64,000 nt of DNA from a candidate division WOR-3 bacterium (lineage in GTDB: Bacteria > Hydrothermota > Tepidihabitantia > Tepidihabitantales > JBDRVQ01), in NCBI GenBank assembly GCA_039801905.1, contig JBDRVQ010000001.1:29635-93634 (forward strand), written 5' to 3'. Below the pieces are notes generated by a model. That model was not told the DNA's origin, did not search any database, and worked only from the letters and a program-made list of their open reading frames with translations. This document shows, in pieces, positions 5,601 to 33,516 of this stretch (position 1 is its first letter; each line of letters opens with the position of its first letter). Made by a program: the position numbers and the translations under genes.

Positions 5601-6090
5601 CCCCGGTATAGCCCAATGCCCAACAAGAATCCGCTTTGATCTTTGTAATGTTCCATTCCGGATCCTCCAAGAGATCGCGCTCCGTTGATTTTGTCAATTT
5701 TGGTAATTGGATGACGAAATCTTCAACCAGATAATCCACTCCCTCCCAATCCTTTATCTTTTTTATCATCTCCGGGGTTGCCTTAAAGGCGATAAAGTTA
5801 GCAATCCAAAAGGACCGCTCATTGGTGATACCAATTTCTCTTAACTTCTTAATAATGGGTTCTTGACTTTTTTGGGCAAAGGCTTTCAAGTAATTAACCT
5901 TCTCCTCTCTACTCTTTCCCTTTAATAAAGAAAGGTCGGCTTCCTCTGTCAGATGGAGGACGATCGGAATCGTTGTGTCAGGTTTTGCCTTTTGGAGAAT
6001 GGTACCAAGGGATGGGAGAATCTCACCGCCGAAGAGAAAGGTTAAGGGAAGGATGGCAAAGATAAATTTCTTGCCTTTCTTTAACCCCAT
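2677..6090 (-). CDS. secreted subtilisin-like (S8) serine protease with six Kelch-like blades and a T9SS/FlgD-Ig-like C-terminal domain
   Basis: Signal peptide. Asp/His/Ser triad contexts are NLDTGVD, HGTYTMG and GTSAAAPHIAG. Six repeats match YxLKGxxTxEFWxYD. The C-terminus (EIILYDATGRRV...) resembles a Por-type sorting domain. Confidence 0.8.
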   Translation of the reverse strand: MGLKKGKKFIFAILPLTFLFGGEILPSLGTILQKAKPDTTIPIVLHLTEEADLSLLKGKSREEKVNYLKAFAQKSQEPIIKKLREIGITNERSFWIANFIAFKATPEMIKKIKDWEGVDYLVEDFVIQLPKLTKSTERDLLEDPEWNITKIKADSCWALGYTGEGVVVGNLDTGVDVYHPAFGNRWRERNGWFDAVAHHQTPYDDNGHGTYTMGIICGGDGFGPFPEDIGVAPGAQFIAAKGFDRLGTGWFSIIAECLQWFAGLGEDAPQVISNSWGGERTATLFWNILRNLRELEIIPVFAIGNNGPNPMTDLAPGNFPIVIGVGATDINDTVASFSSRGPAPNLPPWNQSEYWGRLDWNFIKPDLVAPGIGIRSASPGGGYIVSRGTSAAAPHIAGAVALLLDKGFSEYRAVYSALLDSSDQPIQGGPYPNNNYGWGRVNCRRAISTFQPLLNDLKTIAIHMPETVYCESSYPIQATVKNVGLLTQRDVPVKLQITGPDGYSYQGEERLSIVLGRDTARVVFNPDWLAPYYLGIVTCSVKVWTELRGDERPRNDTFRRRVKVRKKEIVFPPFYAEDFDGDWGPYGDNPPFGWRIGAGGSESPPVWNTNDWHKGRKNGRWGAMISDEILEVNNDTLISPVINCATANSVWLSYFNDYDDNERYPDSGVVLLSTDNGLSWHSIAKYKGTDDYGYVLHEITDFVIGKPTVRIAFLYCGDHGNYWLIDDFLILSESTPAFLWFPKAEFPLGPSKKKVKGGGCLVAVNDTTIYALKGNNTNDFYRYSIRNDTWEFVDSFPNSEAKKRVGKGAAITYDGRRYLYLLRGHNTKEFWRYDTKREEPVWLRLADVPGEKKVLAGAGLTYLQLGDTGYVYFLKGRRTTEWYAYNCEREIWFTDLPFPPEGPGKKRFDRGSALTTDGQNIYVLKGKTNKFYAYAPRLRLWMELFDLPPTEKAKVVRDGALTYDKKLKLIYAFKGGNSPEFWAYDIRGERWFSLTPLPITGKRRGVKEGASLAYAQDKVYALKGNNTQEFYEMRTTMSSLTIPDLLFSPAKRTLYLELPTIIRQEAKISYRVERPGRLEIILYDATGRRVDILLRRELPGKYSDSFLFNAQRLSPRIYFLFFRKGREAILKKLVITK

Positions 6091-6096
6091 AAAACT

Positions 6097-6124
6097 ATTA
6101 TAAAGAAGAAGGGAGGGGAGTCAA
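6097..6124 (-). promoter_or_regulatory. sigma70-type promoter for the S8 protease (TTGACT-16-TATAAT), 6 nt from the ATG
   Basis: Minus strand: ttgact cccctcccttcttctt tataat agtttt ATG. Confidence 0.5.
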
Positions 6125-6243
6125 TCTTCTCGGCAAGGGTTAACAAAGTTATGGTTGATGGTTTGCCCTTGCCAGAGGAATATTTTTAACGCTTTCCCAA
6201 TTTTGGGATGGTCACGACCTCTGTAAACATTACACAAACAGTA

Positions 6244-6271
6244 TTGATCTTATCCGAAATCGCTTTATAAT
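6244..6271 (+). promoter_or_regulatory. sigma70-type promoter for addB (TTGATC-16-TATAAT), 7 nt from the ATG
   Basis: ttgatc ttatccgaaatcgctt tataat cctccaa ATG. No Shine-Dalgarno sequence is present. Confidence 0.5.
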
Positions 6272-6278
6272 CCTCCAA

Positions 6279-9023
6279 ATGAGGAACTTATATCTCTTTC
6301 CTTTTGGGAAGGAAGGGGCAACGAAAAGGCTCCTATCGGATGCCCTATCCCTTTCGGAAAAGGGAAAAAATCGGGATTATTCTGAGATCCTGTATCTGGC
6401 ACCTACACCCCGAAAGGCAAGGGAGGCGATAAAAATTTTTATCTCCCTTTTTCCTAACTCTCCTTTTGCCTTTATCCCACCCCGGTTTTTAACGATAAAG
6501 ACCTTAGCCCAAGAGATATACTCTTCTTTTGCGGAGAAGGTATTTCTGCCCGATTCCTTAAAACCCGTCTTTCTTAAAAGTTTGATTAAAGGAAACTTCT
6601 CTCTTAGCTATTACTATCACATCGGAGAGTTGATTAAAGACTTAAAATCCGCCAATCTGATGAGAGAATGGGAAAAGACCAAAGGGTTAATCAAAAATCG
6701 TTTAGCCCCCTTTTCCCCAAAGAGGCTGAGAATGGAGGAGATATTTGCGCTAATAGAAAGATACGAGGAAGGCCTTAAAGAAAATTCCCTTGCCGATTCC
6801 GAAGATATATTGAAGGAGGCGACAATTTATTTGCAAAAAAGAAAGAAAAGGAAAGGGGTTCTGGTAATTGACGGGTTTATGGATTTGACGAAGTTGGAAG
6901 AAGATTTTTTATCCGCCTTAATCAATAACTTTGAGCATATCCTCGCCTTAGCCTATTTTGATACCCGGTTTCCCGAGATTTATTCCCTCCCTAAGGAGTT
7001 TGCCGATTTCATCTCTTCCTTAGGAGGGTTTGAGGTGATAGAAGAGAGAGGAGATGATAGTTTCTTAGAGCGGGAGAAGATGGCTTTCTTAGAATTTCCT
7101 TCCCGGGAAGAAGAGGTGGAAGGGATTGCCCAAAAGATAAAAAAGTTATTCTTGGATGGGAAATTATCACTTTCCCAGACGATCGTCACCTTTCCCGATT
7201 TAAATAGTTATGCCCCAATTGTGGAAAGGGTCTTTAAGAAGTATAAAATCCCTTTCACCCTTTATCCCCAACGTTCCCTTCTCGCCTCGCCGGTGGTGAT
7301 ACCGGTAATTAATCTATTAAGGGCGGTGGTTGATGACTATCCATTTTTGCCAACGATAACTTGCCTCACTTCTCCTTTCTTCTCTCGTTTCCATATCAAG
7401 ACCAGAAATTTTGTCTCCTATTATGCCCGGCGGGCAAAAATCATTAAAGGGGAATTTAGTTGGCGGAATTTGGTCCGGGATTTGATTAAAGAATATAGAG
7501 AGGAGAAAGGGAAGAAGTCTTCTCTTCCCGGTATCTTCCAAGTAGAAAGGGATATCAATCTCTTCCTTTCAGTGAGCGGCACCCTAAAGAGGGAAAGAGG
7601 GAAAATTACCGACTTTCTCTCCCTTCTCTCCTCCGTTCTTAAAGAGTTGGGTTGGCCCGGAGAATTAAAGGAAGAAGACTTAGAACTCTGGGAAGATAAG
7701 AAAGAGTTGGTTTCTATCTTTCAGGGTTTAGAGTCTTTCCGGGAAACCGAATGTAGTCTGGCAGAATTTTTAGAGATCTTAGAGACAATTCTCAAATATC
7801 ATCCCATTATTCCGGAGCGGGAGGAGAAAGGGGTTAGGATATTAGGATTATTGGAGACAAGGGGTTTAACCGCAAAACATATCTTCTTCGGCGGTCTCTG
7901 TGAGGGAAGTCTCCCTTCCCCTTTAAGACACGACCCATTTTTGCCCGATTGGCTTAGGGAAAAATTAAATCTTTTGCATTTAGAAAGACACCAAAAGTGG
8001 CAGAGACTTCATTTCTTCCGAATATTAAGGTCCGCCCAAGAGATTTATCTCTCCTATCCCCGTCAGGAAGGTGAAAGACTATTTCTCCCTTCTCCCTTCT
8101 TAGAAGGGGAAGCGATTTTGGCAAAAAGGGAGAGAATAATCTTTACCGAGGAGGAGAAAGAGCGCCTTTTAGGATTAGGAGAGGAGAAGGATTTTTCTTC
8201 GGAAGGGGTTGATTTCTCTACCGACCGAGAAGCGAAAAGGGTTTTGAAAAGAAGGTTTTATCCCTATGTCCAAGTGACCGAGATTGAGAAACTGAGAAGA
8301 TGTCCTTACAACTTCTATTTGGAAAATATCTTAGGATTGGTAACAGAAGAGGAGACAAAATTTGAGATTGAACCTCGGGAATGGGGAGAATTGGCGCATC
8401 AGGTTTTGGAAAGGCTCTATGCGGAAAGAAAAGAATTTATCCCCTTAGAGGAGATACCGAAAAGGGTAGAAAAGATTCTCTCCTCCCTCCTCGCCCAGAG
8501 TGGCTTTCCCCTTTTCTGGCAGGATGTGGCAAAGAAGATTTTTGAAAAGATTTTACCCAACTTCTTAGAGATGGAAAAAGAACTAAGGGAAAAAGGGTAT
8601 TATCCGGAAAGGATTGAGGAGCGGGTGAAAGGAGATCTCCTCAGAATTAATCTCTACGGCAAGATTGACCGGATTGATAAAAACCAAGATAATAAATATC
8701 TGATTCTGGATTACAAAACCGGGGGCACGGATATTTATCCCGGAGACATTGAAAAGGGGAAGCATCTCCAACTCCCCCTCTATTCCCTCCTCCTGCGGCG
8801 AAAGGGTTTAGCGGTAAGTGGATTTGCCCTCTATTCCTTTAAGGAGAAGAAGGTGAAATGGCTAGCCAAGGATGAGGTTGATTGCCAAGAAAAAGAAGAA
8901 TTGGCGCAAAAATTTGCCCAAGAAGTACTCCAAGAGGCACTCCAGGGAATTTTTCCTGCGGCCCCAGTTGATGAAGGGGTCTGTCGGTTCTGCCTTTATT
9001 CTTTTCTCTGTGCTCAGGAGTAG
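6279..9023 (+). CDS. addB: ATP-dependent helicase/nuclease subunit B (AddB-type, PD-(D/E)XK nuclease with Fe-S cysteines)
   Basis: C-terminal nuclease motif DRIDKN...LILDYKTG. Cysteines at RRCPYNFY and CRFCLYSFLC. Immediately upstream of addA. Confidence 0.75.
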   Translation: MRNLYLFPFGKEGATKRLLSDALSLSEKGKNRDYSEILYLAPTPRKAREAIKIFISLFPNSPFAFIPPRFLTIKTLAQEIYSSFAEKVFLPDSLKPVFLKSLIKGNFSLSYYYHIGELIKDLKSANLMREWEKTKGLIKNRLAPFSPKRLRMEEIFALIERYEEGLKENSLADSEDILKEATIYLQKRKKRKGVLVIDGFMDLTKLEEDFLSALINNFEHILALAYFDTRFPEIYSLPKEFADFISSLGGFEVIEERGDDSFLEREKMAFLEFPSREEEVEGIAQKIKKLFLDGKLSLSQTIVTFPDLNSYAPIVERVFKKYKIPFTLYPQRSLLASPVVIPVINLLRAVVDDYPFLPTITCLTSPFFSRFHIKTRNFVSYYARRAKIIKGEFSWRNLVRDLIKEYREEKGKKSSLPGIFQVERDINLFLSVSGTLKRERGKITDFLSLLSSVLKELGWPGELKEEDLELWEDKKELVSIFQGLESFRETECSLAEFLEILETILKYHPIIPEREEKGVRILGLLETRGLTAKHIFFGGLCEGSLPSPLRHDPFLPDWLREKLNLLHLERHQKWQRLHFFRILRSAQEIYLSYPRQEGERLFLPSPFLEGEAILAKRERIIFTEEEKERLLGLGEEKDFSSEGVDFSTDREAKRVLKRRFYPYVQVTEIEKLRRCPYNFYLENILGLVTEEETKFEIEPREWGELAHQVLERLYAERKEFIPLEEIPKRVEKILSSLLAQSGFPLFWQDVAKKIFEKILPNFLEMEKELREKGYYPERIEERVKGDLLRINLYGKIDRIDKNQDNKYLILDYKTGGTDIYPGDIEKGKHLQLPLYSLLLRRKGLAVSGFALYSFKEKKVKWLAKDEVDCQEKEELAQKFAQEVLQEALQGIFPAAPVDEGVCRFCLYSFLCAQE

Positions 9024-9025
9024 AA

Positions 9026-12000
9026 ATGGCAGAAGAACTTCTCACCACCTTAGTCCGCTCGCCCGCGGGTTCGGGTAAGACCGAACGTTTAGCCCGAAGG
9101 TACATTGCCTTATTAAAAAGGGGTGTCCCACCCGAAAGAATTTTAACCATCACCTTTACGGAAAAGGCAGCGGCGGAGATGAAAGAGCGCATCTTTCGCA
9201 TCCTAAGAAAAGAAGACCCGGATTTGGAGAGGAAGTTGAAGGAGAGTATCTTAAAGTTAAGGATCTCCACGATTGACTCTTTCTGCTTCTCTTTAATTCG
9301 CACCTTTTCCCCTTATTTAGAATTACCACCAGATTTGGAGGTCAATCCGGAAAGCGAAATCTTGTGGCTTCTCTCCTCTTATGACACCCTCATGGGCATC
9401 GCCCAAGAGAGAAATTCTCCGGATTATTCCCTCTTATCGGACTTAATCTCGGATGGTGGTTTTCGCGGTTGGCCCAACCTTCTTAAACTCTTTCAGGAAC
9501 TGTTCAAAAAACGGATCGCCCTTCTGAGGCGGACAACCGAAGAAGAACTTGATATTGATCACTATCTCTCCCAATTGACGAAAATGGGCATTGATTTACC
9601 ACTGGAACCGGAGAAAGATAAGGTGGAGTCCCTCTTCTTATTCTTAGAAAAAAATCGGCATCTCTTTCTCACCAAAAGAGGAGAAGTGCGGAAGGCAAGG
9701 AAAGGGGAAGAAATTGACTATGAGAGATTGAAAGAGTTTTATATCCTCTTGGCAAAGAGATACTACCAAGGGTATTTTGAGAAGATCCTCTCCCTCTTCC
9801 AAAACCGCTTCTTGGCGGAATATAAAGAGAGGAAACACCAGAAAGGAATTTTAGATTTTCCCGATTTGGAGTTTTTAGTCTTTGACCTTTTGACCAATTT
9901 TCCGGAATGGCAGAATATCCTTTATCTCTTTGACCAGCACACCGACCACATCTTGGTGGACGAGTTTCAGGATACCTCCTTCTTGCAGTGGGCAATCATT
10001 GACAAATTGACTGAGGAGTGGCGAAGCGGTTGGGGAGCGAAGCGGGAGAGAGAAATTGAACCGACCCTATTTTTGGTGGGGGATGAGAAGCAATCAATTT
10101 ATTTCTTCCGCAATGCCCAATCCGAAATCTTTGCCCGAGCCAAAAAGAAATTGGCAGTTTATTTAGGGAATAAGTTCCGCGAGGAGACGGTTAAGGATAA
10201 TTACCGAAGTCTTAATGCCATCATTGAATTTACCAACTACTTCTTCTCCCGACTTTTTATCGGTGGGGAAGGGAAACCATTCTGGCAGACCCCTTACTCC
10301 GAATTCATCGGGCGGCGGCAAAATGCCGCACTGGGAAAGGTGGAGATAATTTTAGACAAAAAGGAAGGGAAGATGCCAGAAAGGAGGAAACTGGAAGCAG
10401 AACTTATCGCCCAGCGGATTAAAACCCTTTTGGGAGAGAAAATTGTCTTTGATCGGGAGGAGAAACCAATCCCCGCCGGTTATGAGCATTTTGCCATTCT
10501 CCTAAGGCGCCGAACCCATCTTCCCCTTTACGAGAAAGCCTTAAAGGATGCCGCTATACCTTATCTGGTGGTGAAAGGGGTTGGCTTCTATCAAGAAATA
10601 GAAGTGCAACTCCTTTGCGCCTTAGTTAACTTCTTAGTAGAACCAACTGATAATTTTAGCCTCTACCTCATCTTAAAGTTTCTCTTCTCTCTATCCGAGA
10701 AGGAGATTCTCCTCCTCCAGAGTCGGGCGGGAGAATGCCTCTACCAAAAGTTGGAAAAGGGGAAGAAAGAGATTGCAGAAGAACTCGCCTCCTATCGGGA
10801 AAAGATTTTTAAACTTCCCATTTCCCTTCTCTTAGAAGAGATTCTCAATCGGCGGGGCGTCTGGCGACTCTTCCCTTCGGACCAACAGTATTCCAATATA
10901 AAGAAGTTCATTCGCATCTGTGAGGAATTAGAATGGGAAGGAAAATCTCCTTGGGAGATAAGAGAATATCTGTCAAGGGCGAAGAAGAATACCGATGAAC
11001 CAAAGGCGGATGTCTCTTGGGAAGGGATCAAGGCGGTGCGGATTATGACCGTGCATGCGGCGAAGGGGTTAGAATTTCCCATTGTCTTCTTCGCTGGTTT
11101 GGATGAAAATTTACTCTCCCATCAGGGCAAGGAAGACTTTGTCATAGAAGAAGGGGAGGAAGGGGTTTCTCTCCTCTACCTTCCGGAAAAGAACCTCCAA
11201 AAAGAAGAGCCCCTCTTTCAAGAAAGGGAAGAGAAGCAATTGGAGGAGGAGAAGAGGATATTTTATGTCGCCTGCACCCGGGCTCGGGATTATCTTGTCC
11301 TTACCGGAATCATTCCCGATAAAGTGTCCCGCTCCCGCCTCCAATGGCTCCAAAATATCTTCTCCCTAGAATGGCGGGAAGGGAAAATTTCCTCGCCGGT
11401 GAAATTGCCGGGGTTAGAATTTCTTTCCGGAGAAGAGGTCTTATCATTAGCGAAGAAAAAAGAGGAAGGAGAAAAGGTAAAAGAAGAGGTGAAGACCTCT
11501 CCCCTATTCCTTTCGGAAATCACAGAAAGGGAAAAGATCATTAAGCCGGTCACCAAAGAGACGAATGAAGATTTAAGGCGCCACGGCGAAGGGGCAATCC
11601 TTTTTGGCAAGGTGATGCATAAGATATTAGAGAAGATTGCCCGAGGGGATCTCGCTTGGCAGAAAGAAGCCGTCTCCCGGATGGGCGAGCGGCTTTTCCT
11701 TTTAGCCGGTGTCCCCCAAAAAGAATTAAAAATCTGGGTGCGAGGAATTTGGCAACAGTTGTCCGTCTTAGAAAAGTCAAACTTGAAAGAGATTATTCTG
11801 CCGCAAGAGGGAAGTTATGCGGAATTACCCTTCCTTTTGGCGGATGGGGATTTTATCTATCAGGGAAGGATTGACCGGGTGATTGTCCGGAAAGAAGAAG
11901 TGGCAATCTATGACTACAAAACCTATCGCGTTAAGGGGGAAGAGATTCCCTTCCTCCTTGACTTTTACGAAAGGGAGCAGATGGCAATTTACCGGAAAGC

Positions 12001-12112
12001 CGCTTCGCTTTTCTTCCCTGGGAAGAGAGTGCGTGCCTATTTAATCTTCACCGCTTTGGGTAAAATCTTTCCCCTTTTTGCTAATTCTCGGGAAATAAGT
12101 CTCACTCCATAA
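9026..12112 (+). CDS. addA: ATP-dependent helicase/nuclease subunit A (UvrD/Rep-family helicase with C-terminal nuclease)
   Basis: Walker A SPAGSGKTERL. Also TFTEKAAAEMKERI, VDEFQDTS and a C-terminal GRIDRV...IYDYKT motif. Confidence 0.85.
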   Translation: MAEELLTTLVRSPAGSGKTERLARRYIALLKRGVPPERILTITFTEKAAAEMKERIFRILRKEDPDLERKLKESILKLRISTIDSFCFSLIRTFSPYLELPPDLEVNPESEILWLLSSYDTLMGIAQERNSPDYSLLSDLISDGGFRGWPNLLKLFQELFKKRIALLRRTTEEELDIDHYLSQLTKMGIDLPLEPEKDKVESLFLFLEKNRHLFLTKRGEVRKARKGEEIDYERLKEFYILLAKRYYQGYFEKILSLFQNRFLAEYKERKHQKGILDFPDLEFLVFDLLTNFPEWQNILYLFDQHTDHILVDEFQDTSFLQWAIIDKLTEEWRSGWGAKREREIEPTLFLVGDEKQSIYFFRNAQSEIFARAKKKLAVYLGNKFREETVKDNYRSLNAIIEFTNYFFSRLFIGGEGKPFWQTPYSEFIGRRQNAALGKVEIILDKKEGKMPERRKLEAELIAQRIKTLLGEKIVFDREEKPIPAGYEHFAILLRRRTHLPLYEKALKDAAIPYLVVKGVGFYQEIEVQLLCALVNFLVEPTDNFSLYLILKFLFSLSEKEILLLQSRAGECLYQKLEKGKKEIAEELASYREKIFKLPISLLLEEILNRRGVWRLFPSDQQYSNIKKFIRICEELEWEGKSPWEIREYLSRAKKNTDEPKADVSWEGIKAVRIMTVHAAKGLEFPIVFFAGLDENLLSHQGKEDFVIEEGEEGVSLLYLPEKNLQKEEPLFQEREEKQLEEEKRIFYVACTRARDYLVLTGIIPDKVSRSRLQWLQNIFSLEWREGKISSPVKLPGLEFLSGEEVLSLAKKKEEGEKVKEEVKTSPLFLSEITEREKIIKPVTKETNEDLRRHGEGAILFGKVMHKILEKIARGDLAWQKEAVSRMGERLFLLAGVPQKELKIWVRGIWQQLSVLEKSNLKEIILPQEGSYAELPFLLADGDFIYQGRIDRVIVRKEEVAIYDYKTYRVKGEEIPFLLDFYEREQMAIYRKAASLFFPGKRVRAYLIFTALGKIFPLFANSREISLTP

Positions 12113-12228
12113 TTTGTTCCCTTTCGGTTTAAGATGGATTTGCCATTAATCTTAAAGCTTTTGGAGTATTACTAAAGATAGGGTCATAGAGTGGTTATGA
12201 TCACTGGTAATGCTTGCAGAGAGATTTC

Positions 12229-12257
12229 TTGACGGAAGAGGAGATTTTTCTTATATT
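12229..12257 (+). promoter_or_regulatory. sigma70-type promoter (TTGACG-17-TATATT), 5 nt from the ATG of the YbbR-like gene
   Basis: ttgacg gaagaggagatttttct tatatt gggaa ATG. Confidence 0.5.
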
Positions 12258-12262
12258 GGGAA

Positions 12263-13156
12263 ATGAGAAATTTCTTCTTCCGAGATATCCCCTTAAAGAT
12301 CTTTGCCCTCTTCCTCTCTTTGGCAATTTGGTTCTTCGCCACCCTGGAACGGAACTACATCGTCACCTACCGCCTCCCTGTTCGGTTTAAGGGAATTCCT
12401 CCCCAGAAGATTATCTCCTACCAGTCCGAAGAATTCGTTGATTTGGTTTTGGAAGGGAAGGGAAAGGATTTTTTGTTCTGGCGGCGGGCTAACTTGGTTT
12501 ATGAGATTCCATTGTCGGAGGCGCGACTGGGAAGACAGAGGATGAGGTTCAAACCAGAAGACTTAAAAGTAAAGGAGGGGATTAAAATTGTCGCTTTTCG
12601 CCCGGAATACCTTGATTTTGAGATTGATAATTTAGGGGAAAAACCGGTGGCGATTAAAGTCTCCTGGGAGGGAGAGATGGAAAAGGGATTTTACCTTACC
12701 GATTGGGAAGTCTTGGACACTGTTTTTCTTTCCGCTCCGAAGGGAGAACTACCTTTTATTAACTTCCTTCCCACAGAACCCTTCTCCTTAAAAGGGGTTA
12801 AAAGATCGGTGGTGAAGGAACTGAAGGTAATTTTGCCCGAAAAGAGAGGTTTTTCTGTCCGACCGGAAAGGGTCCGGGTGAAATTAGTAGTAGAACCAGA
12901 AACGACTGTCACCCTGGAAGGAATTTTGGTGAGACCAAATAGAAGAGGGGTGAAGGTGAGCCCAAAAGAGGCGCAGATTACCGTTTCTGGTCCCCCCTCC
13001 CGGCTCAAAGAGATAAAGGGAGAAGAGATTAAAGCCTTGTTAACGGTTGATACCTTAAAGCCAGGGATTTATTATCTACCCGCTCAGATATTTTTACCTC
13101 CGGGATTATCCTTTGAGCGATGCACACCGGATAAGTTCCAAGTGGAGGTGCGATAG
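12263..13156 (+). CDS. YbbR-like (CdaR-type) domain protein
   Basis: N-terminal TM segment (IFALFLSLAIWFFAT) followed by repeated beta-rich YbbR-like segments. The assignment rests on overall resemblance only. Confidence 0.55.
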   Translation: MRNFFFRDIPLKIFALFLSLAIWFFATLERNYIVTYRLPVRFKGIPPQKIISYQSEEFVDLVLEGKGKDFLFWRRANLVYEIPLSEARLGRQRMRFKPEDLKVKEGIKIVAFRPEYLDFEIDNLGEKPVAIKVSWEGEMEKGFYLTDWEVLDTVFLSAPKGELPFINFLPTEPFSLKGVKRSVVKELKVILPEKRGFSVRPERVRVKLVVEPETTVTLEGILVRPNRRGVKVSPKEAQITVSGPPSRLKEIKGEEIKALLTVDTLKPGIYYLPAQIFLPPGLSFERCTPDKFQVEVR

Positions 13157-14136
13157 TGTATATCTTAGGTATTGAGACTTCTTGTGATGAGACCTGTGCG
13201 GCGGTTTTGCGGGATGGAAGAGAGATTCTTTCTAATGTTGTCTCCTCCCAGTATCTCCATTCCCGCTACGGTGGGGTGATACCGGAGGTGGCTTCCCGGG
13301 CGCACATTAAGCATTTAGTCCCGATTACGGAGACCGCCCTGGCAGTAGCCGGAATCGGCTTTTCGGAAATTGATCTCATCACCGCCACTTACGGACCAGG
13401 GCTCATCGGCTCTCTTCTCGTTGGGCTCTCCTTTGCCAAGGGTTTATCTTTAAGCCTCAATAAACCATTCGTGGGGGTGAACCACATTGAAGGACATATC
13501 TTCGCTTCCCTCCTCGCTTATCCCGAAATTAAACCTCCTTTCCTCTCCCTCATCATCTCCGGTGGCCATACCGAGATTTACTTGGTGAAAGAGATTGGCC
13601 AGTACCATTTATTAGGGATGACCTTAGACGACGCCTGCGGAGAGGCATTTGACAAGGTAGGAAAGTTATTAGGATTTCCTTATCCCGCAGGATTTAAGAT
13701 TGAAGAGATAGCAAGGGAAGGGAAAAGAAGCATTAACTTCCCTATCCCCAAAGTTAATGGAGCCAATTTCAGTTTCTCGGGCTTGAAGACCGCGGTGCTC
13801 TATTTTTTGAAAGATAATCCTCACTATCCGAAGGAAGATATCGCCCATTCCTTTCAAGAAGTTGTATTTGACTTCTTAGAAGAGAAGATTGTTTTCGCGG
13901 TGCAAGAAGTTTCTTTGCGCCTGATGACCGTTTCCGGTGGGGTGGCGGCGAATAGTCGATTGAGAGCGCGTCTGGCACAATTAGGAAGAAGGGAAGGAAT
14001 AAGATTTTACATCCCACCCCTTTCCCTCTGCACCGACAATGCGGCAATGATTGCCGCTTGTGGTTATGAGAGATTTAAGCGGTTCGGCTCTTCGCCGTTG
14101 GATCTACCAGCGAAGGCGAACGAAATCTTAACCTGA
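13156..14136 (+). CDS. tsaD: tRNA N6-adenosine threonylcarbamoyltransferase
   Basis: ILGIETSCDETCAAV, GVNHIEGH, GGVAANSRLR: a Kae1/Gcp-family signature. Confidence 0.9.
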   Translation: MYILGIETSCDETCAAVLRDGREILSNVVSSQYLHSRYGGVIPEVASRAHIKHLVPITETALAVAGIGFSEIDLITATYGPGLIGSLLVGLSFAKGLSLSLNKPFVGVNHIEGHIFASLLAYPEIKPPFLSLIISGGHTEIYLVKEIGQYHLLGMTLDDACGEAFDKVGKLLGFPYPAGFKIEEIAREGKRSINFPIPKVNGANFSFSGLKTAVLYFLKDNPHYPKEDIAHSFQEVVFDFLEEKIVFAVQEVSLRLMTVSGGVAANSRLRARLAQLGRREGIRFYIPPLSLCTDNAAMIAACGYERFKRFGSSPLDLPAKANEILT

Positions 14137-15048
14137 GACCATCTCCTTCGCCCATTTCCGACAAAGTCTTATCGCTTCTTCCATCCCCCGGGAATCTGCC
14201 ACCCCCTTCCCCGCGATGTCAAAGGCGGTGCCGTGCAAAGGAGAGGTACGAATGAAGGGAAGACCTAAGGTGGTATTTATCCCTTTACCCTTGCCGATTG
14301 TTTTCACCATTATCATCCCCTGGTCATGATAGGGGGAAATAAAACCATCGTATCTCTTATAATAAAAGAGAAAGGAATCGGCTGGTAAAGTCCCTACGAT
14401 ATCAATTCCTAAATCTTTTAGCCTCTTTATTCCTTTCGCCATCTCCTTCTCTTCTCCCCGGGAAAATTCTCCACCGTGGGGATTGAGAGAGAAGAGACCG
14501 ATCCTTGGTGATTCAATCCCCTCAAGCCGATGGAGGAAATCATAAAGGAGAAGGCCCTTTTCCACTACCCAACGAGTTTTAATCCGAGAAGGTACTTCTT
14601 TCAAAGGACAATGTAAGGTGAGAAAGGCAATCTTTATCTTCTTATGATAGGCTAAGAAACAATAATTTCTCACCCCAAACTCCTGGGCGAAGAATTCGGT
14701 CTGGCCGGGATAAGGGAAGCCAATTCGGTAGAGGTTGCTCTTAGAAATGGGAGCGGTAACTATCCCTTTCGCCTCTCCCTTCTTTATTAAAGAAACGCCA
14801 ACCTTTAAGCCCTCCCAGGCAAATTGAGCGGTCTTCCGATCCGGTTTGCCAAAGGTAAAATCAATCCCCGGTAGAAAGTCTAAAAGATACGGTTCAAAAT
14901 CAATCGCTATCTTTAGTTTTTCTCTCAATTTTGTCAAAAGAACCCGAGCACCAATAATCTTCACTTCCTGGGGTGGGAATTTAGCAATCGCCTTTAAGAC
15001 AACCTCCGGACCAATCCCTGTTATCTCACCTAAGGTGACAACCACCAC
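14128..15048 (-). CDS. pdxA: 4-hydroxythreonine-4-phosphate dehydrogenase (PdxA family)
   Basis: GEITGIGPEV, NPHGGE, HGTAFDIAGKG. The ORF is open to 15150, but that extension overlaps the upstream permease. The GTG at 15048 gives an MVVVTLGEITGIGPE start, which is my inference. Confidence 0.8.
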   Translation of the reverse strand: MVVVTLGEITGIGPEVVLKAIAKFPPQEVKIIGARVLLTKLREKLKIAIDFEPYLLDFLPGIDFTFGKPDRKTAQFAWEGLKVGVSLIKKGEAKGIVTAPISKSNLYRIGFPYPGQTEFFAQEFGVRNYCFLAYHKKIKIAFLTLHCPLKEVPSRIKTRWVVEKGLLLYDFLHRLEGIESPRIGLFSLNPHGGEFSRGEEKEMAKGIKRLKDLGIDIVGTLPADSFLFYYKRYDGFISPYHDQGMIMVKTIGKGKGINTTLGLPFIRTSPLHGTAFDIAGKGVADSRGMEEAIRLCRKWAKEMVSG

Positions 15049-15076
15049 GAGAACTATCTTTTGACCATTATTACCA

Positions 15077-15910
15077 TCAATAGGTCGCCAGTATCCCTTG
15101 CCTTCGGGTATAGCGGTCAATGAGGTTGAATACCAAAATCCCGAAGGCAATCCAAAGGAAGCAGAGGAGAATCAATCGGAGAAAGAGGGTGGTTAAAGAA
15201 AAGGGAATTCTTTCCCCGATTAGGAAGTGCCTCACCCCTAAAACCCCATAAGTGGCTGGAACAAAAAGTGCCGCCTTTTGGAGAAAAAGAGGCAAAACCG
15301 CCAAGGGGTAAGCGATCGGCGTGATGACCATCATTATTCCCGAAAGGGCTTCCGAGACCAACCAACCCTGTTTGAAGATGAGGGTGAGTGCCGCCACCAT
15401 CATTCCAAAACCATAGAGGGCAAAAAGCATTAGGGCGATAATTAAAAGAGAAGGCAAAATACCACCAACCTTTATCGTAAAAGAGAAGATGATATACATC
15501 ACAATCAATTGAAAGATGACAATTATTGACTGGTGCAGGGTAGAATGGCAAGCCATCCCTAAGGCGAAGACCCAACGGGGAACCGGGGTAGCAAAGACGA
15601 TCTCTAAGGTGCCGTGAAATTGCTCTTTTCTTAAAGAGAAACCCATCGCCCAAAGCGCCATATTCAAAAAACCGATGAAGATATAACCTAATATGACAAA
15701 GGTGATAATATCACTACTTCCCGCGAGTTTCTCTAAATAAGGAGAAGAACGGCCCCCAACAATAGCGATACCGTAAAGGAGATGGGGCAAAAGGTAGACT
15801 AACGGGTCAATCATTCCTCGGATAAAATCCGCCTTATAAGCCAATTCTATCTTCCACTCTTTAATATTTTCCGCCCAGATTGCTCGCAGATATCCGATCA
15901 GCCTCTTCAT
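15077..15910 (-). CDS. ABC-2 type transporter permease
   Basis: Six predicted TM helices. The ATG at 15910 sits 1 nt after the upstream stop. The ORF-track extension to 15997 overlaps the neighbouring gene. Confidence 0.7.
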   Translation of the reverse strand: MKRLIGYLRAIWAENIKEWKIELAYKADFIRGMIDPLVYLLPHLLYGIAIVGGRSSPYLEKLAGSSDIITFVILGYIFIGFLNMALWAMGFSLRKEQFHGTLEIVFATPVPRWVFALGMACHSTLHQSIIVIFQLIVMYIIFSFTIKVGGILPSLLIIALMLFALYGFGMMVAALTLIFKQGWLVSEALSGIMMVITPIAYPLAVLPLFLQKAALFVPATYGVLGVRHFLIGERIPFSLTTLFLRLILLCFLWIAFGILVFNLIDRYTRRQGILATY

Positions 15911-15911
15911 T

Positions 15912-16748
15912 TTAATACATAGCAATCGTCCCCATCCTTCTCGTCTTCTTTTCCAGATAAGTAAAAAGTAAGATACCAACCAGGAGGAAGACAACATCCA
16001 TAATCCCTAAGAGGAGAATTGTCTGACCCAAATCCAAAATTCTCTTATTTAAGAGAACAATCGCCCGCACCGCCACTAAGGCATAGGTCAAAGGCAAAAG
16101 AAGGGAGATAGTCTTCGTGATGGGATTTATCTCCACCGGATAGCGGATTGGGGAAAAGAGATAAAAGACCCATTCTAAGGTGTGGACAAATCCATGAACC
16201 TCTTTAATTAATAGGGTAAATCCGGCTAGACCAATCGCCAAGCCGTAAAAGCCAATGAGAAGTAATAAAACAATTAAGACCACAGGCAAAATTTGCTTTA
16301 CCCCCACCCTTAAATCTAAAAGGAATACCGAAATTAGTACCTGGGCAATAACCACCACCGTGGCATAGAGAAATTCCACCACCGTCTTACCGATAAGAAT
16401 TACCATCGGGTGGGTGGGAGAGACAAACATATACTCCAAGGTTCCCCAATAAGTCTCCTCCCGGAGCGCATTCCCTACCCCCCATAAACCAGAAAAGATG
16501 TAAGTAGAGATGATTGCTCCCAAAAGGACAAAGGAGAGGTAGTTAGCGCTTCCCGTTAGGTTCTTAAAGGATTCACTGGTTAAACTACCAACGAATGCCT
16601 TGCCTTGAAAGATAAAAGGTAATACCCAGATTAAAGGGAAAATTCCCCAGAAGACAAGCATTATCGGATAGGTGAACCAAATTTTTATCGTCTTTATCAC
16701 CTCCGCCTTAATCACCCGCAGATTTCTCAAAATTACCTCTCTCTTCAT
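15912..16748 (-). CDS. ABC-2 type transporter permease
   Basis: Polytopic membrane protein paralogous to the downstream permease. Overlaps the ATPase gene by 4 nt. Confidence 0.7.
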   Translation of the reverse strand: MKREVILRNLRVIKAEVIKTIKIWFTYPIMLVFWGIFPLIWVLPFIFQGKAFVGSLTSESFKNLTGSANYLSFVLLGAIISTYIFSGLWGVGNALREETYWGTLEYMFVSPTHPMVILIGKTVVEFLYATVVVIAQVLISVFLLDLRVGVKQILPVVLIVLLLLIGFYGLAIGLAGFTLLIKEVHGFVHTLEWVFYLFSPIRYPVEINPITKTISLLLPLTYALVAVRAIVLLNKRILDLGQTILLLGIMDVVFLLVGILLFTYLEKKTRRMGTIAMY

Positions 16749-17740
16749 TCTGCCAAATTTTCTTTGGTATCTTCCTTTAAGGAAGTTCCCGTAATATAAA
16801 GGAAAACATCCTCTAAGGTTGGCTCCTGGTTATTGATTGACAATATCTTTCCTCCTTCCCCAATCGCCTTAATCGCCTCACTCAGAATCTCCTCCACCCG
16901 GGGGGCGATAATCTTCAAGGTTGTTATCCCATCCTTCGCAAAAGAAGAGATGCTCTCTACCATTGGTATCTTCTCAATCTTACTCTTATCCCAAGAGCCA
17001 AAAAATCTTATCTCTAAAATCTCTTTATGGGGCATCTCCTTTTTATACTCCGCCGGCGTCTTCACATCAACAATCTTACCCTTATTGATAAAGGCGATTC
17101 TGTCGCATAACTCATCCGCCTCTTCCATATAGTGAGTGGTTAAAAGTATCGTCTTTTTATGCCTCCCTTTCAATTCCTCCCGGATAAAATTCCGGATGAA
17201 ACGGGCAAAACCCGGATCCAAACCTAAGGTCGGCTCGTCTAAGAGTAAAACCTTTGGGTCGTGGAGTAAAGCCCGGGCCAAAGATAATTTCTGCTTCATC
17301 CCCGAAGAGTACCTCTCCACCCTTTCGTAAGCCACCTCCTTCAAACCTAAAAGTTCTAAAAGATAGTCAATCCTTTTATCCCGCTCCTTAGGTGAAAGTC
17401 CGTAAAGAGCCGCGAAGAATTTCAGGTTATCAACCGCGGAAAGTTTCCAATAGAGTGTCCTCTCGCCAGAGGTTAAAAGTCCAATATTCCCCTTCGCCCA
17501 AAGGGAATTGGCAAAGACATCCCGACCGAAAAGCAATATCTTCCCACTCTCTGGAATCAATAGAGTAGCGATACACCGAACCAAGGTTGTCTTCCCGGCT
17601 CCGTTCGGACCCAAAAGGCCAAAGATTTCCCCTTCGGCAATGGAGAAACTGGCATTAGCCACCGCCAGGATTTCCCTTTTTTTCAAACCCTTCCCCCGGC
17701 GGAACTTCTTCGTTAAATCCCTAACCTCTAAGGCATTCAT
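16745..17740 (-). CDS. ABC transporter ATP-binding protein
   Basis: Walker A GPNGAGKTT, signature SSGMKQKLSLA, Walker B LLLDEPT. The start MNALEVRDL at 17740 forms an ATGA overlap with the GT4 stop. Confidence 0.85.
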   Translation of the reverse strand: MNALEVRDLTKKFRRGKGLKKREILAVANASFSIAEGEIFGLLGPNGAGKTTLVRCIATLLIPESGKILLFGRDVFANSLWAKGNIGLLTSGERTLYWKLSAVDNLKFFAALYGLSPKERDKRIDYLLELLGLKEVAYERVERYSSGMKQKLSLARALLHDPKVLLLDEPTLGLDPGFARFIRNFIREELKGRHKKTILLTTHYMEEADELCDRIAFINKGKIVDVKTPAEYKKEMPHKEILEIRFFGSWDKSKIEKIPMVESISSFAKDGITTLKIIAPRVEEILSEAIKAIGEGGKILSINNQEPTLEDVFLYITGTSLKEDTKENLAE

Positions 17741-18849
17741 CTCTTCGCCAAAACTAATCTTATCAAATCCTCCATCTTCTGTGCCGACTCCTCCCAGGAG
17801 AATTTTTCTGCCCACATTCTCCCTTCCTTTCCCATTCTATCAACCATCTCCTCATTGTCAAGAAGAAAAGCCATCTTTTCGCTCAACTCTTTAATATCAC
17901 CGTATTGATAAAAAAGTCCAGTCTTTCCTTCTCTTACCGCATCAACCAAACCAGGAGAGCGGGCAGCAATTACCGGTGTGCCGCAGGCATTTGCCTCAAC
18001 AATAATTAGACCCCAACCCTCCTTAATGGAATTCTCAACCAAAAAGTAGGCGGATTGATAAAGATTTAACTTCTCCTCCTCTTTTATATAACCAGTAAAC
18101 TCCACAACCGCCTCCATCCCTAACTCTTTGGTCATCTTTTTTAATCTCATTAAGTCATCCCCATCCCCAACAATCACCACCCGAAAATCCCTTCGCTTCT
18201 GAAATAGGAGATGAGTTGCCAATAATAGATGGTCGGTTGATTTATACCTCTTTAACCGGCCGCAATGCAAAATAATCTTCTCTTTCTTCTTATTAAAATC
18301 CGGTTGGTAAAACTGAGTATCAATTCCGGGTGGAATCACCCTTATCCTTTCGCTAATATCCTTCTTAAATAAGTTAAGCAAATCCCTTTTGGTGCTTTCC
18401 GAAAGAACCGCAAAGTAATTATCCTTATAAACCCAAGGGATGAGATTTTCCGCAAGGTAGACATAGGTGGCAAATAAAAAAGAGGTCTCTTTATAAACCG
18501 CCTTCCGGAAGAGGTGCATCAGGATGGCTAAGACTGGAATCTCTTTTATAAAATAAGGAGAATAAAAGGGTATTTTATTTAAGTCATCAATGATTAAGTC
18601 AAAGTTATTTTCTTTAACAATTCTGGGCAAGAAGCGATACACAGTAAAATTGAAGGTATTTTTTCCGCCCCTTCTTAAAAATCTTATCCCCCCTATTTCC
18701 TCCTCATCCGGCAGATTGGCTCTTTCCGAAAGGTAGGTTATCTTAAACCCTTTTTTTGCCAATCTCCGGAAGATCTCATAAGCATAGACCTCCGCCCCTC
18801 CGGCTAAGGGATTTTTTGGGCAGCGCCAATTGATTAAGAGAACATTCAT
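17737..18849 (-). CDS. glycosyltransferase family 4 (GT-B)
   Basis: C-terminal EGWGLIIVEANACGTPVIA motif typical of GT4/GT1 enzymes. Confidence 0.8.
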   Translation of the reverse strand: MNVLLINWRCPKNPLAGGAEVYAYEIFRRLAKKGFKITYLSERANLPDEEEIGGIRFLRRGGKNTFNFTVYRFLPRIVKENNFDLIIDDLNKIPFYSPYFIKEIPVLAILMHLFRKAVYKETSFLFATYVYLAENLIPWVYKDNYFAVLSESTKRDLLNLFKKDISERIRVIPPGIDTQFYQPDFNKKKEKIILHCGRLKRYKSTDHLLLATHLLFQKRRDFRVVIVGDGDDLMRLKKMTKELGMEAVVEFTGYIKEEEKLNLYQSAYFLVENSIKEGWGLIIVEANACGTPVIAARSPGLVDAVREGKTGLFYQYGDIKELSEKMAFLLDNEEMVDRMGKEGRMWAEKFSWEESAQKMEDLIRLVLAKR

Positions 18850-18864
18850 TAAAAGAATAGAAAA

Positions 18865-18937
18865 TGGGTCGTGCAGGATTCGAACCTGCGGCCACCGGAT
18901 TAAAAATCCGGTGCTCTGCCACCTGAGCTAACGACCC
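18865..18937 (-). tRNA. tRNA-Lys (anticodon UUU)
   Basis: The reverse complement GGGTCGTTAGCTCAGGTGGCAGAGCACCGGATTTTTAATCCGGTGGCCGCAGGTTCGAATCCTGCACGACCCA folds as a 73-nt cloverleaf. Acceptor stem 7 bp, anticodon loop TTTTTAA, T-loop TTCGAAT. No CCA is encoded. Confidence 0.93.
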
Positions 18938-18945
18938 GATAGCTA

Positions 18946-18973
18946 ATCTTAATTAGAAATGGCAAAAAGTCAA
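18946..18973 (-). promoter_or_regulatory. sigma70-type promoter for tRNA-Lys (TTGACT-16-TAAGAT)
   Basis: Minus strand: ttgact ttttgccatttctaat taagat tagctatc GGGTCG. The -10 ends about 8 nt before the mature tRNA 5' end. Confidence 0.5.
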
Positions 18974-19104
18974 CTTTCCATATTCCCACCACTATCTTTA
19001 AAAGTACCTAAAGCCGATAGAAAACTTGACAATTGCCAACCCATTTATTGGGAGCGGATGGAAAGCGAAGGCTCTACTCAAAAAGAAAAGATTATCCATC
19101 TCCA

Positions 19105-19311
19105 CTAATCATTCTCAATTAGGCTTCCATTTTCCCTTCGGATTAAACCCATAGTTAGACATAGGATTAAACTCTTTATTATCCCTTCTATTAAACTCTG
19201 AATTAAAGTTCCAATTATACCCTCTTTTAGAGTATTTATTAAATCCTCAATTAGATCTCCAATTACGTGTAAAATTATCCCTTATTTTAGACCCTATATT
19301 ATGCCTTCCAT
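19105..19311 (-). repeat. 12-nt phased degenerate tandem array, 17 units
   Basis: Minus strand: atggaaggcata|atatagggtcta|aaataagggata|attttacacgta|attggagatcta|... |attgagaatgat|tag. Confidence 0.9.
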
Positions 19312-19411
19312 TAAATCCCCGATACCATCCCCTGTATGCTACACCCTTTTTACAAAAATAAATCCCTCCTTTCTAAGGATAGTTTTTCTTATCAGTTAGT
19401 TAATTTATTAT

Positions 19412-19439
19412 ATTATAAAGCAATTTTGGAAGATGTCAA
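19412..19439 (-). promoter_or_regulatory. near-consensus sigma70 promoter (TTGACA-16-TATAAT) reading into box + array C
   Basis: Minus strand: attgaca tcttccaaaattgctt tataat ataataaatt. Confidence 0.6.
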
Positions 19440-19471
19440 TCTCTGGGAAAAGCAAGCCGGGATTTCTTACC

Positions 19472-20356
19472 TTAATTGATAATGATTTCTATTTTAGAAT
19501 ATTTAGGGGAAAGACCGGGCAGAAAACGGGGAGCAATGGCTATCGTCCCCTTAGGAAGGAGAATCCTCTTCTTCAATTCCCTTTCCACCACCTCCACCCA
19601 ACCCGGTAGGAGCTCTTCCTTCTCGGAATAAACAAAGCAAGTGATCTCCCTCTTAAAATTCTCCTTTACCAGATTTGCCGCCTCATCCCATATCTCCTTC
19701 GCCTGAGAAGTCAAATCTTCACCTCCTTCCCCAAATATCTCCCGGGCGGAGATGGCGATAATCTTCTGCCCTTTTTCTTCGTAGAAAATCCCAGGTATTT
19801 TCAAAGGCTCACCCAAAATTTTCGTCTCGTTGCCAATCGCATCATAAGCCGAGAAAGAGAAGGAATAAACCTCACCCGGGATTATCACCTCTCCGGTATT
19901 CTTCCTTCCGTTCCAAACGATGGTTGCCGGTGGCATCCCCTTCCCTTCCAACCTTCTCACCTCCTCTCCTTGGCTATCAAAAATTATCAGACGCCAGGAG
20001 GCAACCGTCTTCTCAAAATGGGGAAATAGGATTAAGACATCACCGTAGATAAATCTCTTTTTCACTGGCACCCGTAAATAGTTGGAGGTGATAAAAAGAG
20101 AGGGAATCGTTAGGGAGTCTACTGTGTAATATAACCGCTCATCGTAGATGTAACCCGAAGGTTTGAGCCTTTCTTCAATTAAAAGGAAAGGGTTGATGGG
20201 AGGCGGGGTGAAGAGTTTCCTTTCGGTGATTAGGTAAGGCTTCTCCCCCTTTATCACCTCTTCCCCAATCTCATAAGGTCTCTTTACCTTACCCGTATCC
20301 GGCTTCAAGGTATCGGGAATTTGGGTGAAGAAAAGAAGAATGAAGAGGTAAATCAC
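19472..20356 (-). CDS. hypothetical exported protein with a FlgD-Ig-like segment; last gene of the exbBD-tonB operon
   Basis: N-terminal hydrophobic signal. Contains the segment TIVWNGRKNTGEVIIPGEVYSFSFSAYDAIGNE. Overlaps tonB by 4 nt. Confidence 0.5.
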   Translation of the reverse strand: MIYLFILLFFTQIPDTLKPDTGKVKRPYEIGEEVIKGEKPYLITERKLFTPPPINPFLLIEERLKPSGYIYDERLYYTVDSLTIPSLFITSNYLRVPVKKRFIYGDVLILFPHFEKTVASWRLIIFDSQGEEVRRLEGKGMPPATIVWNGRKNTGEVIIPGEVYSFSFSAYDAIGNETKILGEPLKIPGIFYEEKGQKIIAISAREIFGEGGEDLTSQAKEIWDEAANLVKENFKREITCFVYSEKEELLPGWVEVVERELKKRILLPKGTIAIAPRFLPGLSPKYSKIEIIIN

Positions 20357-32731: not shown

Positions 32732-33067
32732 TTTTCACCTCTTCACTAAAATTAAGTTTAGGGGAAAAAAAGGGAAAGTCAACATTGGTATGGAAGCAAT
32801 AAGAGAGAAGAGCCACTTTATGGTGGTAGAGATTTTTGACCAAAAGAATTGAATTTCTCGTTGATGATAATACCTTGCCAAAATAAACCTCTCGCCACCT
32901 TCTATTCAAGAAGAAGAGTTACAATCTAAGGAGTGAGCGGAAGATAAAAAGATGAAATAGAACTTTCCCACTTCGGTGGTCACACCCTTCTGAAAAGTGT
33001 CTCTTGAATTAAATAAGTTATTATAAATCAAAGGCTTATAAAAAAGGGGGAAATTTAGTGTCAGAAA

Positions 33068-33096
33068 TTGGGGGGTATTTCCGTATTTATTATAGA
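33068..33096 (+). promoter_or_regulatory. promoter-like element of the copy B leader (TTGGGG-17-TATAGA), 5 nt from the sORF ATG
   Basis: ttgggg ggtatttccgtatttat tataga gggct ATG. Confidence 0.4.
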
Positions 33097-33101
33097 GGGC
33101 T

Positions 33102-33200
33102 ATGAAGAAGTTAAAAGAAATTATTAAGGTAAGTGATTGGGTTCTAATCCCAACCCTTGAAGAGAGATTGAGGAGGTATTATCGGGTAATTAGCACTTAA
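33102..33200 (+). CDS. candidate leaderless small ORF (32 aa), MKKLKEIIKVSDWVLIPTLEERLRRYYRVIST
   Basis: Paralogue of 2120-2224. Both share the same start context and the same stop (AGC ACT TAA). Confidence 0.3.
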   Translation: MKKLKEIIKVSDWVLIPTLEERLRRYYRVIST

Positions 33201-33297
33201 TAAAAATGGCATTAAATAATAAAAAACTTTATCAAACAGGAGGGGTTTATCTTTATAAAAAGGGGTGTAGCATACAGGGGATGGTATCGGGGATTTA

Positions 33298-33516
33298 ATG
33301 GAAGGCATAATCTAAGGCATAATTTTAGGCTTAATCGGAGTTTTAATAGAGGGTTTAATTGAGAATCTAATAAATACTCTAAAAGAAGTTATAACCGGCG
33401 GTATAATCAGAAGCCTAATTCAGAGTTTAATAGAAAGGATAATAAAGAGTTTAATCATGTGTCTAATTAAGGGTTTAATCCGAAGGGAAAATAGAAACCT
33501 AATTGAGAATGATTAG
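33298..33516 (+). repeat. 12-nt phased degenerate tandem array, 18 units
   Basis: atggaaggcata|atctaaggcata|attttaggctta|atcggagtttta|atagagggttta|attgagaatcta|...|attgagaatgat|tag. Confidence 0.9.

Follow-up and report, generated by a model that had tools for sequence, protein, structure and literature searches.

The stretch of DNA analysed here (the window; 64,000 nucleotides of contig JBDRVQ010000001.1 of a candidate division WOR-3 bacterium, assembly GCA_039801905.1) carries four copies, A to D, of a repeat element in which a conserved box is followed by an array of 12-nt units. Copy C, which runs from 19439 to 19039 on the minus strand, can be read as a complete 'solo' member of this repeat family, functional-looking rather than a pseudogene. 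Its -35 hexamer TTGACA (19434-19439) and -10 hexamer TATAAT (19412-19417), separated by a 16-nt spacer, give a 12/12 promoter match, the sole one found by a promoter scan of positions 1-20000 of the window. They are followed by an A-rich leader, here termed type 2 (19347-19411), which contains the purine run AGGAGGG (19370-19364) and TTTATTTTTGTAAAAA, and by the box GGGTGTAGCATACAGGGGATGGTATCGGGGATT (19314-19346), which contains an ATG at 19328-19326 and forms the head of the array. The array itself (19119-19313) comprises 16 units of 12 nt with 17 phased TAA positions, one of them degenerate, and is succeeded by an array end and tail (19039-19118) common to copy B (33503-33582), in which no terminator is present.

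Every sequence-level statement that an earlier reading made from the letters alone (the sequence-only reading) had offered on this layout is borne out. It had placed copy C on the opposite strand behind TTGACA-16-TATAAT, roughly 60 nt away from the box and 95 nt from the 'array ATG'; the measured distances are 66 nt from the end of the -10 hexamer down to the box, and about 94 nt to the ATG at 19311-19309 from a start site near 19405, which is an assumption from the promoter position. Self-comparison of the window confirmed that copy C is devoid of the leader common to A, B and D. The resemblance of array and tail to copy B, estimated at 85-90%, was found to be 84% identity over 227 nt (19039-19265 against 33356-33582), and 92% for the tail alone (5 differences in about 66 positions). 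The homology stops at 19039, which is, as anticipated, 65 nt ahead of a promoter-like site, TTGACT-16-TAAGAT (18973-18946), in the tRNA-Lys neighbour (18865-18973, minus strand), a region outside the module that includes the tRNA-Lys(UUU) at 18937-18865. Transcription from copy C could possibly run on into tRNA-Lys, because no terminator was found between the array and that gene. The adjacency to tRNA-Lys was thus confirmed as a position, while its meaning was not demonstrated. The other tRNA-adjacent solo copy sits on the opposite side: tRNA-Leu(CAG) (7162-7245) lies upstream of the promoter (~7290) of solo copy L003, and tRNA-Lys lies instead downstream of copy C. Integration at tRNA genes was rejected on the same ground, that the two tRNA-adjacent copies flank opposite sides of their tRNA.

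The 641-nt region of copy C is identical in a second assembly, GCA_039801865.1. Three independent assemblies (L024, L025 and L026) stop 88-159 nt inside this region; the repeat breaks short-read assemblies and, therefore, the copy number per genome is probably underestimated.

A sigma-70-type promoter, taken as TTGACA and TATAAT spaced 16-18 nt apart, is borne by copy C and five further solo copies, four of them (L003, L006, L007 and L008) from the sister genome JBDRVU01 and one (L022) from a more distant genome, which makes six copies in three candidate-division WOR-3 genomes. All six possess perfect hexamers with a spacer of 16-17 nt, the distance from promoter to box is similar across them, and their flanks are homologous to copy C. 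The direction of transcription from box to array, proposed earlier, is strengthened by these copies, as every promoter-bearing copy with perfect hexamers is so oriented (6/6). The suggestion that the module had been recruited at least twice behind different promoters is not upheld: the promoter of copy C is homologous to those of L003, L006, L007 and L008, and the homology between its promoter and leader and the solo copies of the sister genome (TTGACATTTT...ACYTTATAATATAATAAATT) indicates that the promoter is an inherited component of a second leader class and not a local recruitment. There are therefore two inherited leader types, type 1 situated behind ORF2 (a gene described below) or its remnant (A, B, D and most others), and type 2, which is self-promoted (C and the five other solo copies).

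The type-1 leader lies upstream of ORF1 at 56586-56701 (plus strand), is common to copy A (2025-2176) and copy B (33007-33158), and includes the hairpin TTGGGTTCTAATCCCAA. This hairpin is like a tRNA T-arm, TTGGG-TTCTAAT-CCCAA(CCC), at 2155-2174, 33137-33156 and 56682-56701, and is kept in the distant lineage L028 (~587-610) as CTTGGGTTCTAATCCCAG; ARAGORN detected no tRNA at it. Over 108 nt of leader (2069-2176 against 33051-33158) copies A and B agree at 98%, and their arrays (2319-2513 against 33296-33502) are only about 67-75% identical. This contrast suggests either that the non-coding DNA beside the arrays changes more slowly than they do or that gene conversion homogenises the leaders.

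The periodicity of the arrays goes far beyond chance. Runs of five TAA triplets spaced exactly 12 nt apart are found 46 times in the window; every one of them lies within the four arrays and on the sense strand, and 100 dinucleotide-preserving shuffles of the window produced none. Among 270 units from 17 non-redundant arrays, the core T-A-A (T10, A11, A0) is occupied by T in 246, A in 255 and A in 262 units, and the following T is present in 191, while the remaining columns hold less than 0.7 bit of information each. Substitutions between related copies number 8, 0 and 3 at the core T, A and A, while the nine positions outside the core changed 14-29 times each. The core is TAA, mostly TAAT, and is replaced by GATAT in one distant lineage. 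As neither TAG nor TGA ever substitutes for TAA, the core is to be regarded as a sequence motif and not as a generic stop. The number of units is held at 16-20 across lineages, and array identity between copies is 66-87% (nine pairs with both arrays complete). In copy C the TAA phasing is intact and unchanged with respect to copy B and L017 while the spacers drift, an observation that sides with the functional unit envisaged by the sequence-only reading rather than with decay. The module is under selection and is not decaying.

Across 15 distinct copies the 19-nt core of the box is the same, and the identity between copies is 84-100% for the box with the upstream purine run, in comparison with 46-87% for the leaders. 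In L022, L028 and L029 the box core GATAC stands in exact 12-nt register with the units, so that the box makes up the first, invariant part of the lattice that the units form. A mini-frame of five codons, ATG GTA TCN GGG NTC TAA, is contained in the box (19328-19311, minus strand) and closes at the first TAA. It is also found in all WOR-3 copies and L022, with the third codon varying synonymously (TCA/TCG/TCC); its start is GTG in L022 and is lost in L028. The mini-frame may be only a by-product of the box-array register. A CsrA-type hairpin in the box, where AUACAGGGGAUGGUAU recalls the CsrA consensus, was also considered and rejected, as there is no conserved hairpin and no covariation (0 covarying pairs in 14 sequences), and the pairing is lost in distant copies.

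The three other copies of the window are on the plus strand. Copy A (2255-2513) has the purine run, the box core at 2293-2311 and the first TAA at 2319, and stands behind a type-1 leader and what is left of the ORF2 3' end. Copy B (33232-33582) has the purine run, the box core at 33270-33288, the first TAA at 33296 and the tail common to copy C. Copy D (57458-57716) has the purine run, the box core at 57496-57514 and the array at 57522-57716, and is located directly 3' of ORF2. Further copies were obtained by a box-pattern scan, which yielded seven from one WOR-3 genome, and by following up homologues of ORF2 and of the peptide putatively encoded by the array. A search of 185,579 genomes with the box pattern returned one WOR-3 genome and one chance match, and a search of 241 million metagenome records for a wider distribution gave a chance match only. 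To date, members of the family are known from just a few candidate-division WOR-3 hot-spring genomes. A member of the family can accordingly be described as a transcription start, a G-cluster head (the box) and 16-20 units of 12 nt; the start would be provided either by a perfect sigma-70 promoter, as in copy C, or by read-through from a two-gene operon, as in copy D.

The two genes of this operon are ORF1 (124 aa; 56713-57087, plus strand), 92-98% conserved in sister genomes, and ORF2 (111 aa; 57084-57419, plus strand), which overlap and are then followed by copy D. Both products are small, basic and helical, and the comparison of the ORF1 and ORF2 families by hhalign (probability 97.8%, E 1e-12) identifies them as paralogues. 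A profile of six WOR-3 ORF2 sequences, when searched against 1.84 billion representatives, retrieved ten relatives, including the protein P0020 at E 1.5e-4, which itself clears the Pfam threshold for PF12193 with 36.9 bits. When the broadened ORF2 profile was compared with the PDB, the top six matches were without exception filamentous archaeal virus coat proteins; AFV1 ORF132 (E 1e-4) and SIRV2 (5e-4) were followed by 3FBL, 6WQ0 and AFV1 ORF140. As a control for circularity, P0019 and P0020 were removed from the profile, and AFV1 ORF132 was still ranked first (E 0.048). The hhalign probability for ORF2 is 95% against P0020 and 81.5% against AFV1 ORF132, and the best-probability match of Foldseek is AFV1 ORF140. 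These profile comparisons indicate that ORF2, and through it ORF1, is remotely homologous to the SIRV2/AFV1 type of major coat protein known from rudiviruses and lipothrixviruses. No other viral genes were found near the module, and the locus is chromosomal with housekeeping neighbours.

The association of arrays with these genes extends well beyond the window. The order ORF1-ORF2-box-array is kept in two distant lineages, L028 and L029. In L028, where ORF2 is 49% identical, ORF1 and ORF2 are followed by the box AGCGATACAGGGGG, which has no ATG, and by about 18 units with YTAA every 12 nt, in which the T after TAA is not conserved. In the GC-richer L029, where ORF2 is 42% identical, ORF1 and ORF2 are followed by CGATACAGGGGG and by units of the consensus tGATATtgnggG; A-T-A is present in 19 of 19 units, the core being changed (GATAT) and the period and head being retained. 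This amounts to a tight and ancient genetic linkage of the repeat family to ORF1/ORF2. The majority of copies lie downstream of ORF2 or of a decayed ORF2 3' end, which is all that copies A and B keep of it, and the arrays persist beside decayed ORFs in A, B, L001, L002, L017 and L019. Since the lattices are retained where the linked genes have decayed, an action in trans is implied.

At L009, L010 and L011, in sister genomes, the ORF1-ORF2-array module has differing neighbours on one or both sides, so that it looks like a recombination breakpoint. The module of L010 stands beside a restriction-modification methyltransferase and an nSTAND NTPase, an arrangement resembling a defence island. Several arrays end directly ahead of the promoter of the next gene; in the window, the HU gene (57915-58187) has a near-consensus promoter, TTGACA-17-TATATT (57756-57784), which starts 40 nt past the last unit of copy D.

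The interpretation put forward here, the chances of which we judge to be evenly balanced, is that box and array form a phased lattice, or binding track, for coat-protein-like dimers of ORF1 and ORF2. Heterodimers of the two proteins would polymerise on the lattice with one dimer per 12-nt unit, the invariant head units would serve as the nucleation site, and the AT core would set the register of the dimers; copy C would be strongly transcribed across its lattice, which it would supply in trans. The period is in keeping with the finding that the SIRV2 homodimer and the AFV1 heterodimer each cover 12 bp of A-form DNA (PMC5517147). Both the binding and the form of nucleic acid bound are what we infer, and the latter may be double-stranded DNA, the purine-rich transcript, or an RNA:DNA hybrid arising from transcription. 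The nature of the protein family speaks for duplex DNA, whereas the conserved perfect promoters and a sense strand that is purine-rich and unstructured speak for the transcript or a transcription-made hybrid.

Several observations weigh against the binding of coat-like dimers to such a lattice. The direct matches of ORF2 to Pfam PF12193 and PF21660 (E ~0.005; 17.6 and 17.1 bits) fall below the respective cut-offs of 25.2 and 27, and the link of ORF2 to the coat proteins is a remote and transitive one. A period of 12 is common among tandem repeats, and its match to 12 bp per dimer could be a coincidence. To our knowledge, the viral members of this coat-protein family show no sequence preference when they bind DNA, and a phased recognition core is without precedent among them. 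A conserved perfect promoter, not obviously needed for a DNA site, would rather argue for an RNA or transcription-coupled role, whereas double-stranded DNA is the only ligand known for the family. Lastly, L027, a distant locus, keeps both genes and a remnant resembling the box, with no clear array.

A stronger form of the proposal, which we regard as possible though doubtful, is a cellular, non-viral nucleoprotein machine of adnavirus-like type, in which two coat-protein paralogues would act on chromosomal 12-bp lattices with G-cluster nucleation heads and locally form a coated A-form filament of DNA or RNA:DNA hybrid. The helical coat protein that filamentous archaeal viruses have in common is the defining feature of an entire virus realm, and a chromosomal pair of its homologues in WOR-3 bacteria would bear on the origin of Adnaviria. 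If true, the coat-protein family would gain its first sequence-programmed assembly site, and Adnaviria their first link to bacteria, in the form of either a cellular ancestor of the coat protein or a domesticated capsid. The conserved lattice, with a period that matches the 12 bp a dimer is known to cover, lies beside the gene pair and would also offer, unlike viral genomes, a short, defined and sequence-programmed substrate for studying nucleation and A-form assembly. No published description of such a system was found. The coat protein of adnaviruses has been described as unique, and adnavirians as not connected to any bacterial viruses (PMC10848233).

Among the alternatives, the one that survives best, although we consider it improbable, is that the module is a stand-alone abundant non-coding RNA, which would sponge or scaffold a different protein, one that binds single-stranded RNA and recognises UAA(U) at every twelfth nucleotide, with ORF1 and ORF2 linked to it only by the shared ancestry of a duplicated segment. 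The perfect promoters kept on all solo copies and the outlasting of decayed ORFs by the arrays would fit such an RNA. So would the composition of the sense strand, which is purine-rich and C-poor (GC skew +0.4 to +0.57); however, this skew resembles that of ordinary genes of the genome, and the notion of an R-loop design drawn from it was rejected on finding it no higher than in neighbouring genes. The presumed 370-nt transcript of copy C folds no better than shuffles (z = 0.08), as expected of a single-stranded platform, and the folding of the tails (z = -1.2 and -0.7) and of the leaders (z from -0.9 to +0.8) is likewise unremarkable. In Rfam 15, tRNA-Lys was the sole match at the gathering threshold, and nothing relevant to the module appeared up to E 10, nor could a candidate protein be named; Rfam, Pfam, NCBIfam and PADLOC hold no family that covers the module, PADLOC and PHROGs being uninformative. 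It also tells against a free-standing RNA that genes and array stay adjacent at 42-49% ORF2 identity and that the core motif changes along with the proteins.

Quite unlikely, in our judgement, is the explanation that the array is a third gene of the operon, encoding a small repeat peptide (x-L/I/V-I-x)n that begins at a TAATG overlap with the 5-codon leader frame, copies B and C being pseudogenes. The frame of the ATG (19311-19309 in copy C) does read in this way, 11 of 17 arrays keep it free of stops, each of the four window copies has the ATG, and gene callers have annotated the peptide in several genomes, including L029 (96 aa). Nevertheless, the array ATG and the open reading frame (ORF) which the sequence-only reading implied are not sustained, as the ATG is absent from 9 of 20 arrays, and also from L028, stops interrupt 6 of 17 arrays and L028, and the substitutions are without a codon-position pattern. 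In copy C there are two stops, TAG at 19296-19294 (codon 6) and TAA at 19284-19282 (codon 10), and in copy B a single in-frame TAA at codon 6. The most conserved base, the middle A of the core, falls at the wobble position of a Leu/Ile/Val codon, which is NTA in about 97% of units with a random first base, whereas in the genome TTA and CTA account for 27% and 5% of Leu codons, ATA for 13% of Ile and GTA for 12% of Val. The codon after NTA invariably opens with A, and its second base varies to give I, K, N, T, S or R. Substitutions at the three codon positions of the ATG frame number 62, 73 and 75, so that a third-position excess is lacking, and non-synonymous changes exceed synonymous ones by 2-5 to 1. 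Between lineages the peptide would switch from x-L-I-x, which is hydrophobic, to x-D-I-x, which is acidic.

Stops in the ATG frame are indeed fewer than in column-shuffled arrays (9 against 16.2 ± 2.9), but the antisense frame is still more depleted (8 against 19.4), and the depletion is therefore not specific to the ATG frame. On either strand, there is no further frame in which the invariant bases would be confined to the first two codon positions. The repeat peptide has no match in Pfam or NCBIfam, and a peptide profile search returned seven proteins among 5.8 billion, essentially all of them from WOR-3. The array is thus taken not to be a peptide gene, and the 'hypothetical proteins' that WOR-3 annotations derive from this repeat, which also breaks assemblies, are almost certainly not protein-coding.

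Other coding schemes were rejected as well. A reading of TAA as a sense codon, or a frame-1 ORF, is contradicted by TAG and TGA in the same frame and by the standard code of the normal genes of the window, and a programmed frameshift or termination-reinitiation at ATT-TAA-TG by the lack of conservation of the ATG and by the loss of the mini-frame start in L028. The stop-depleted antisense ORF (ATT-ANR-CYY-TNN) is interrupted in A, B and C, opposes the promoters and again has an invariant wobble base, while the antisense ORF in the tail of B and C (PIYWERMESEGS...) has no conserved start and the homology ends within it. A diversity-generating retroelement was discarded too, the adenines being invariant rather than variable and no reverse transcriptase being nearby. 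Elsewhere in the window, the ORF at 46448-47410 carries a 102-nt (34-aa) unit of GYID..GK.VI.P.F type, repeated in tandem seven times, and looks like an ordinary repeat protein.

It is very unlikely that the module is a selfish or neutral dispersed repeat, comparable to miniature inverted-repeat transposable elements or the pneumococcal BOX, with a periodicity generated by replication slippage and an incidental promoter and neighbourhood. Multiple dispersed intergenic copies, assemblies that break inside the module and genome rearrangements at L009, L010 and L011 would be consistent with it. However, slippage would homogenise whole units, and instead nine of the 12 positions are randomised and three frozen; moreover, the unit number is constant at 16-20, perfect promoter hexamers and box are conserved between genomes, and no terminal inverted repeats or transposase were seen. 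Similarly unlikely is a role of copy C as a cis-regulatory leader for tRNA-Lys and the glycosyltransferase (18849-17737), the array modulating read-through from the strong promoter, for although the stretch from array to tRNA-Lys has no terminator and several arrays end just before the promoter of a co-oriented gene (D before HU; L006; L008), tRNA-Lys has its own promoter-like site, the downstream genes are convergent for A, L010 and L019, and they are unrelated between copies.

When the module, read as a phased lattice for ORF1/ORF2 dimers, is compared with known systems, the RNA-based ones resemble it in part. The sponge RNAs CsrB and RsmZ carry a repeated protein-binding motif, which in CsrB is GGA exposed in hairpin loops at irregular spacing. 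The module is like them in the strong promoter on a predicted non-coding transcript with about 18 copies of a short motif, and unlike them in the strict 12-nt spacing of its UAA, the absence of hairpins and the lack of an Rfam match. In type III toxin-antitoxin systems such as ToxIN, the ToxI repeats are about 36 nt long and pseudoknotted, precede the toxin gene and are cut by the endoribonuclease toxin. A tandem repeat with a promoter and a genetically linked putative protein partner is common to both; however, the units of the module are 12 nt long, unstructured and placed behind the genes, and the proteins are coat-like. When the module was checked for the arrangement of this class, repeats of about 34-45 nt upstream of a toxin with a terminator between them, no terminator and no PADLOC match were found.

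Plasmid partition centromeres are another comparison. The parC site of R1 has 11-bp iterons bound by ParR, the tubC site of pBtoxis has 12-bp repeats bound by TubR, and in both the small adaptor protein polymerises on the repeats as a helical filament with one dimer per repeat. The module shares with them short tandem direct repeats adjoining the gene for a small, here putatively nucleic-acid-binding, protein. It differs in that its arrays occur in several copies on the chromosome, follow the genes and are strongly promoted, and in that the protein fold is probably an unrelated one. No partition NTPase was found beside copy D or at orthologous loci, and the arrays are dispersed on the chromosome.

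The Adnaviria, represented by SIRV2 of the Rudiviridae and AFV1 of the Lipothrixviridae, differ from the module in several respects. The host here is a bacterium, the locus is chromosomal and free of other viral genes nearby, and many lattices are solo with promoters of their own; while the viral coat covers the whole genome without sequence preference, the lattice here is only ~200 nt long and has a conserved core and head. Yet ORF1 and ORF2 are likely remote homologues of the major coat proteins of these viruses, the adjacent paralogues of 110-125 aa mirror the heterodimer-forming MCP1 and MCP2 of AFV1, and the array period of 12 equals the 12 bp that are covered per dimer in SIRV2 and AFV1 (PMC5517147).

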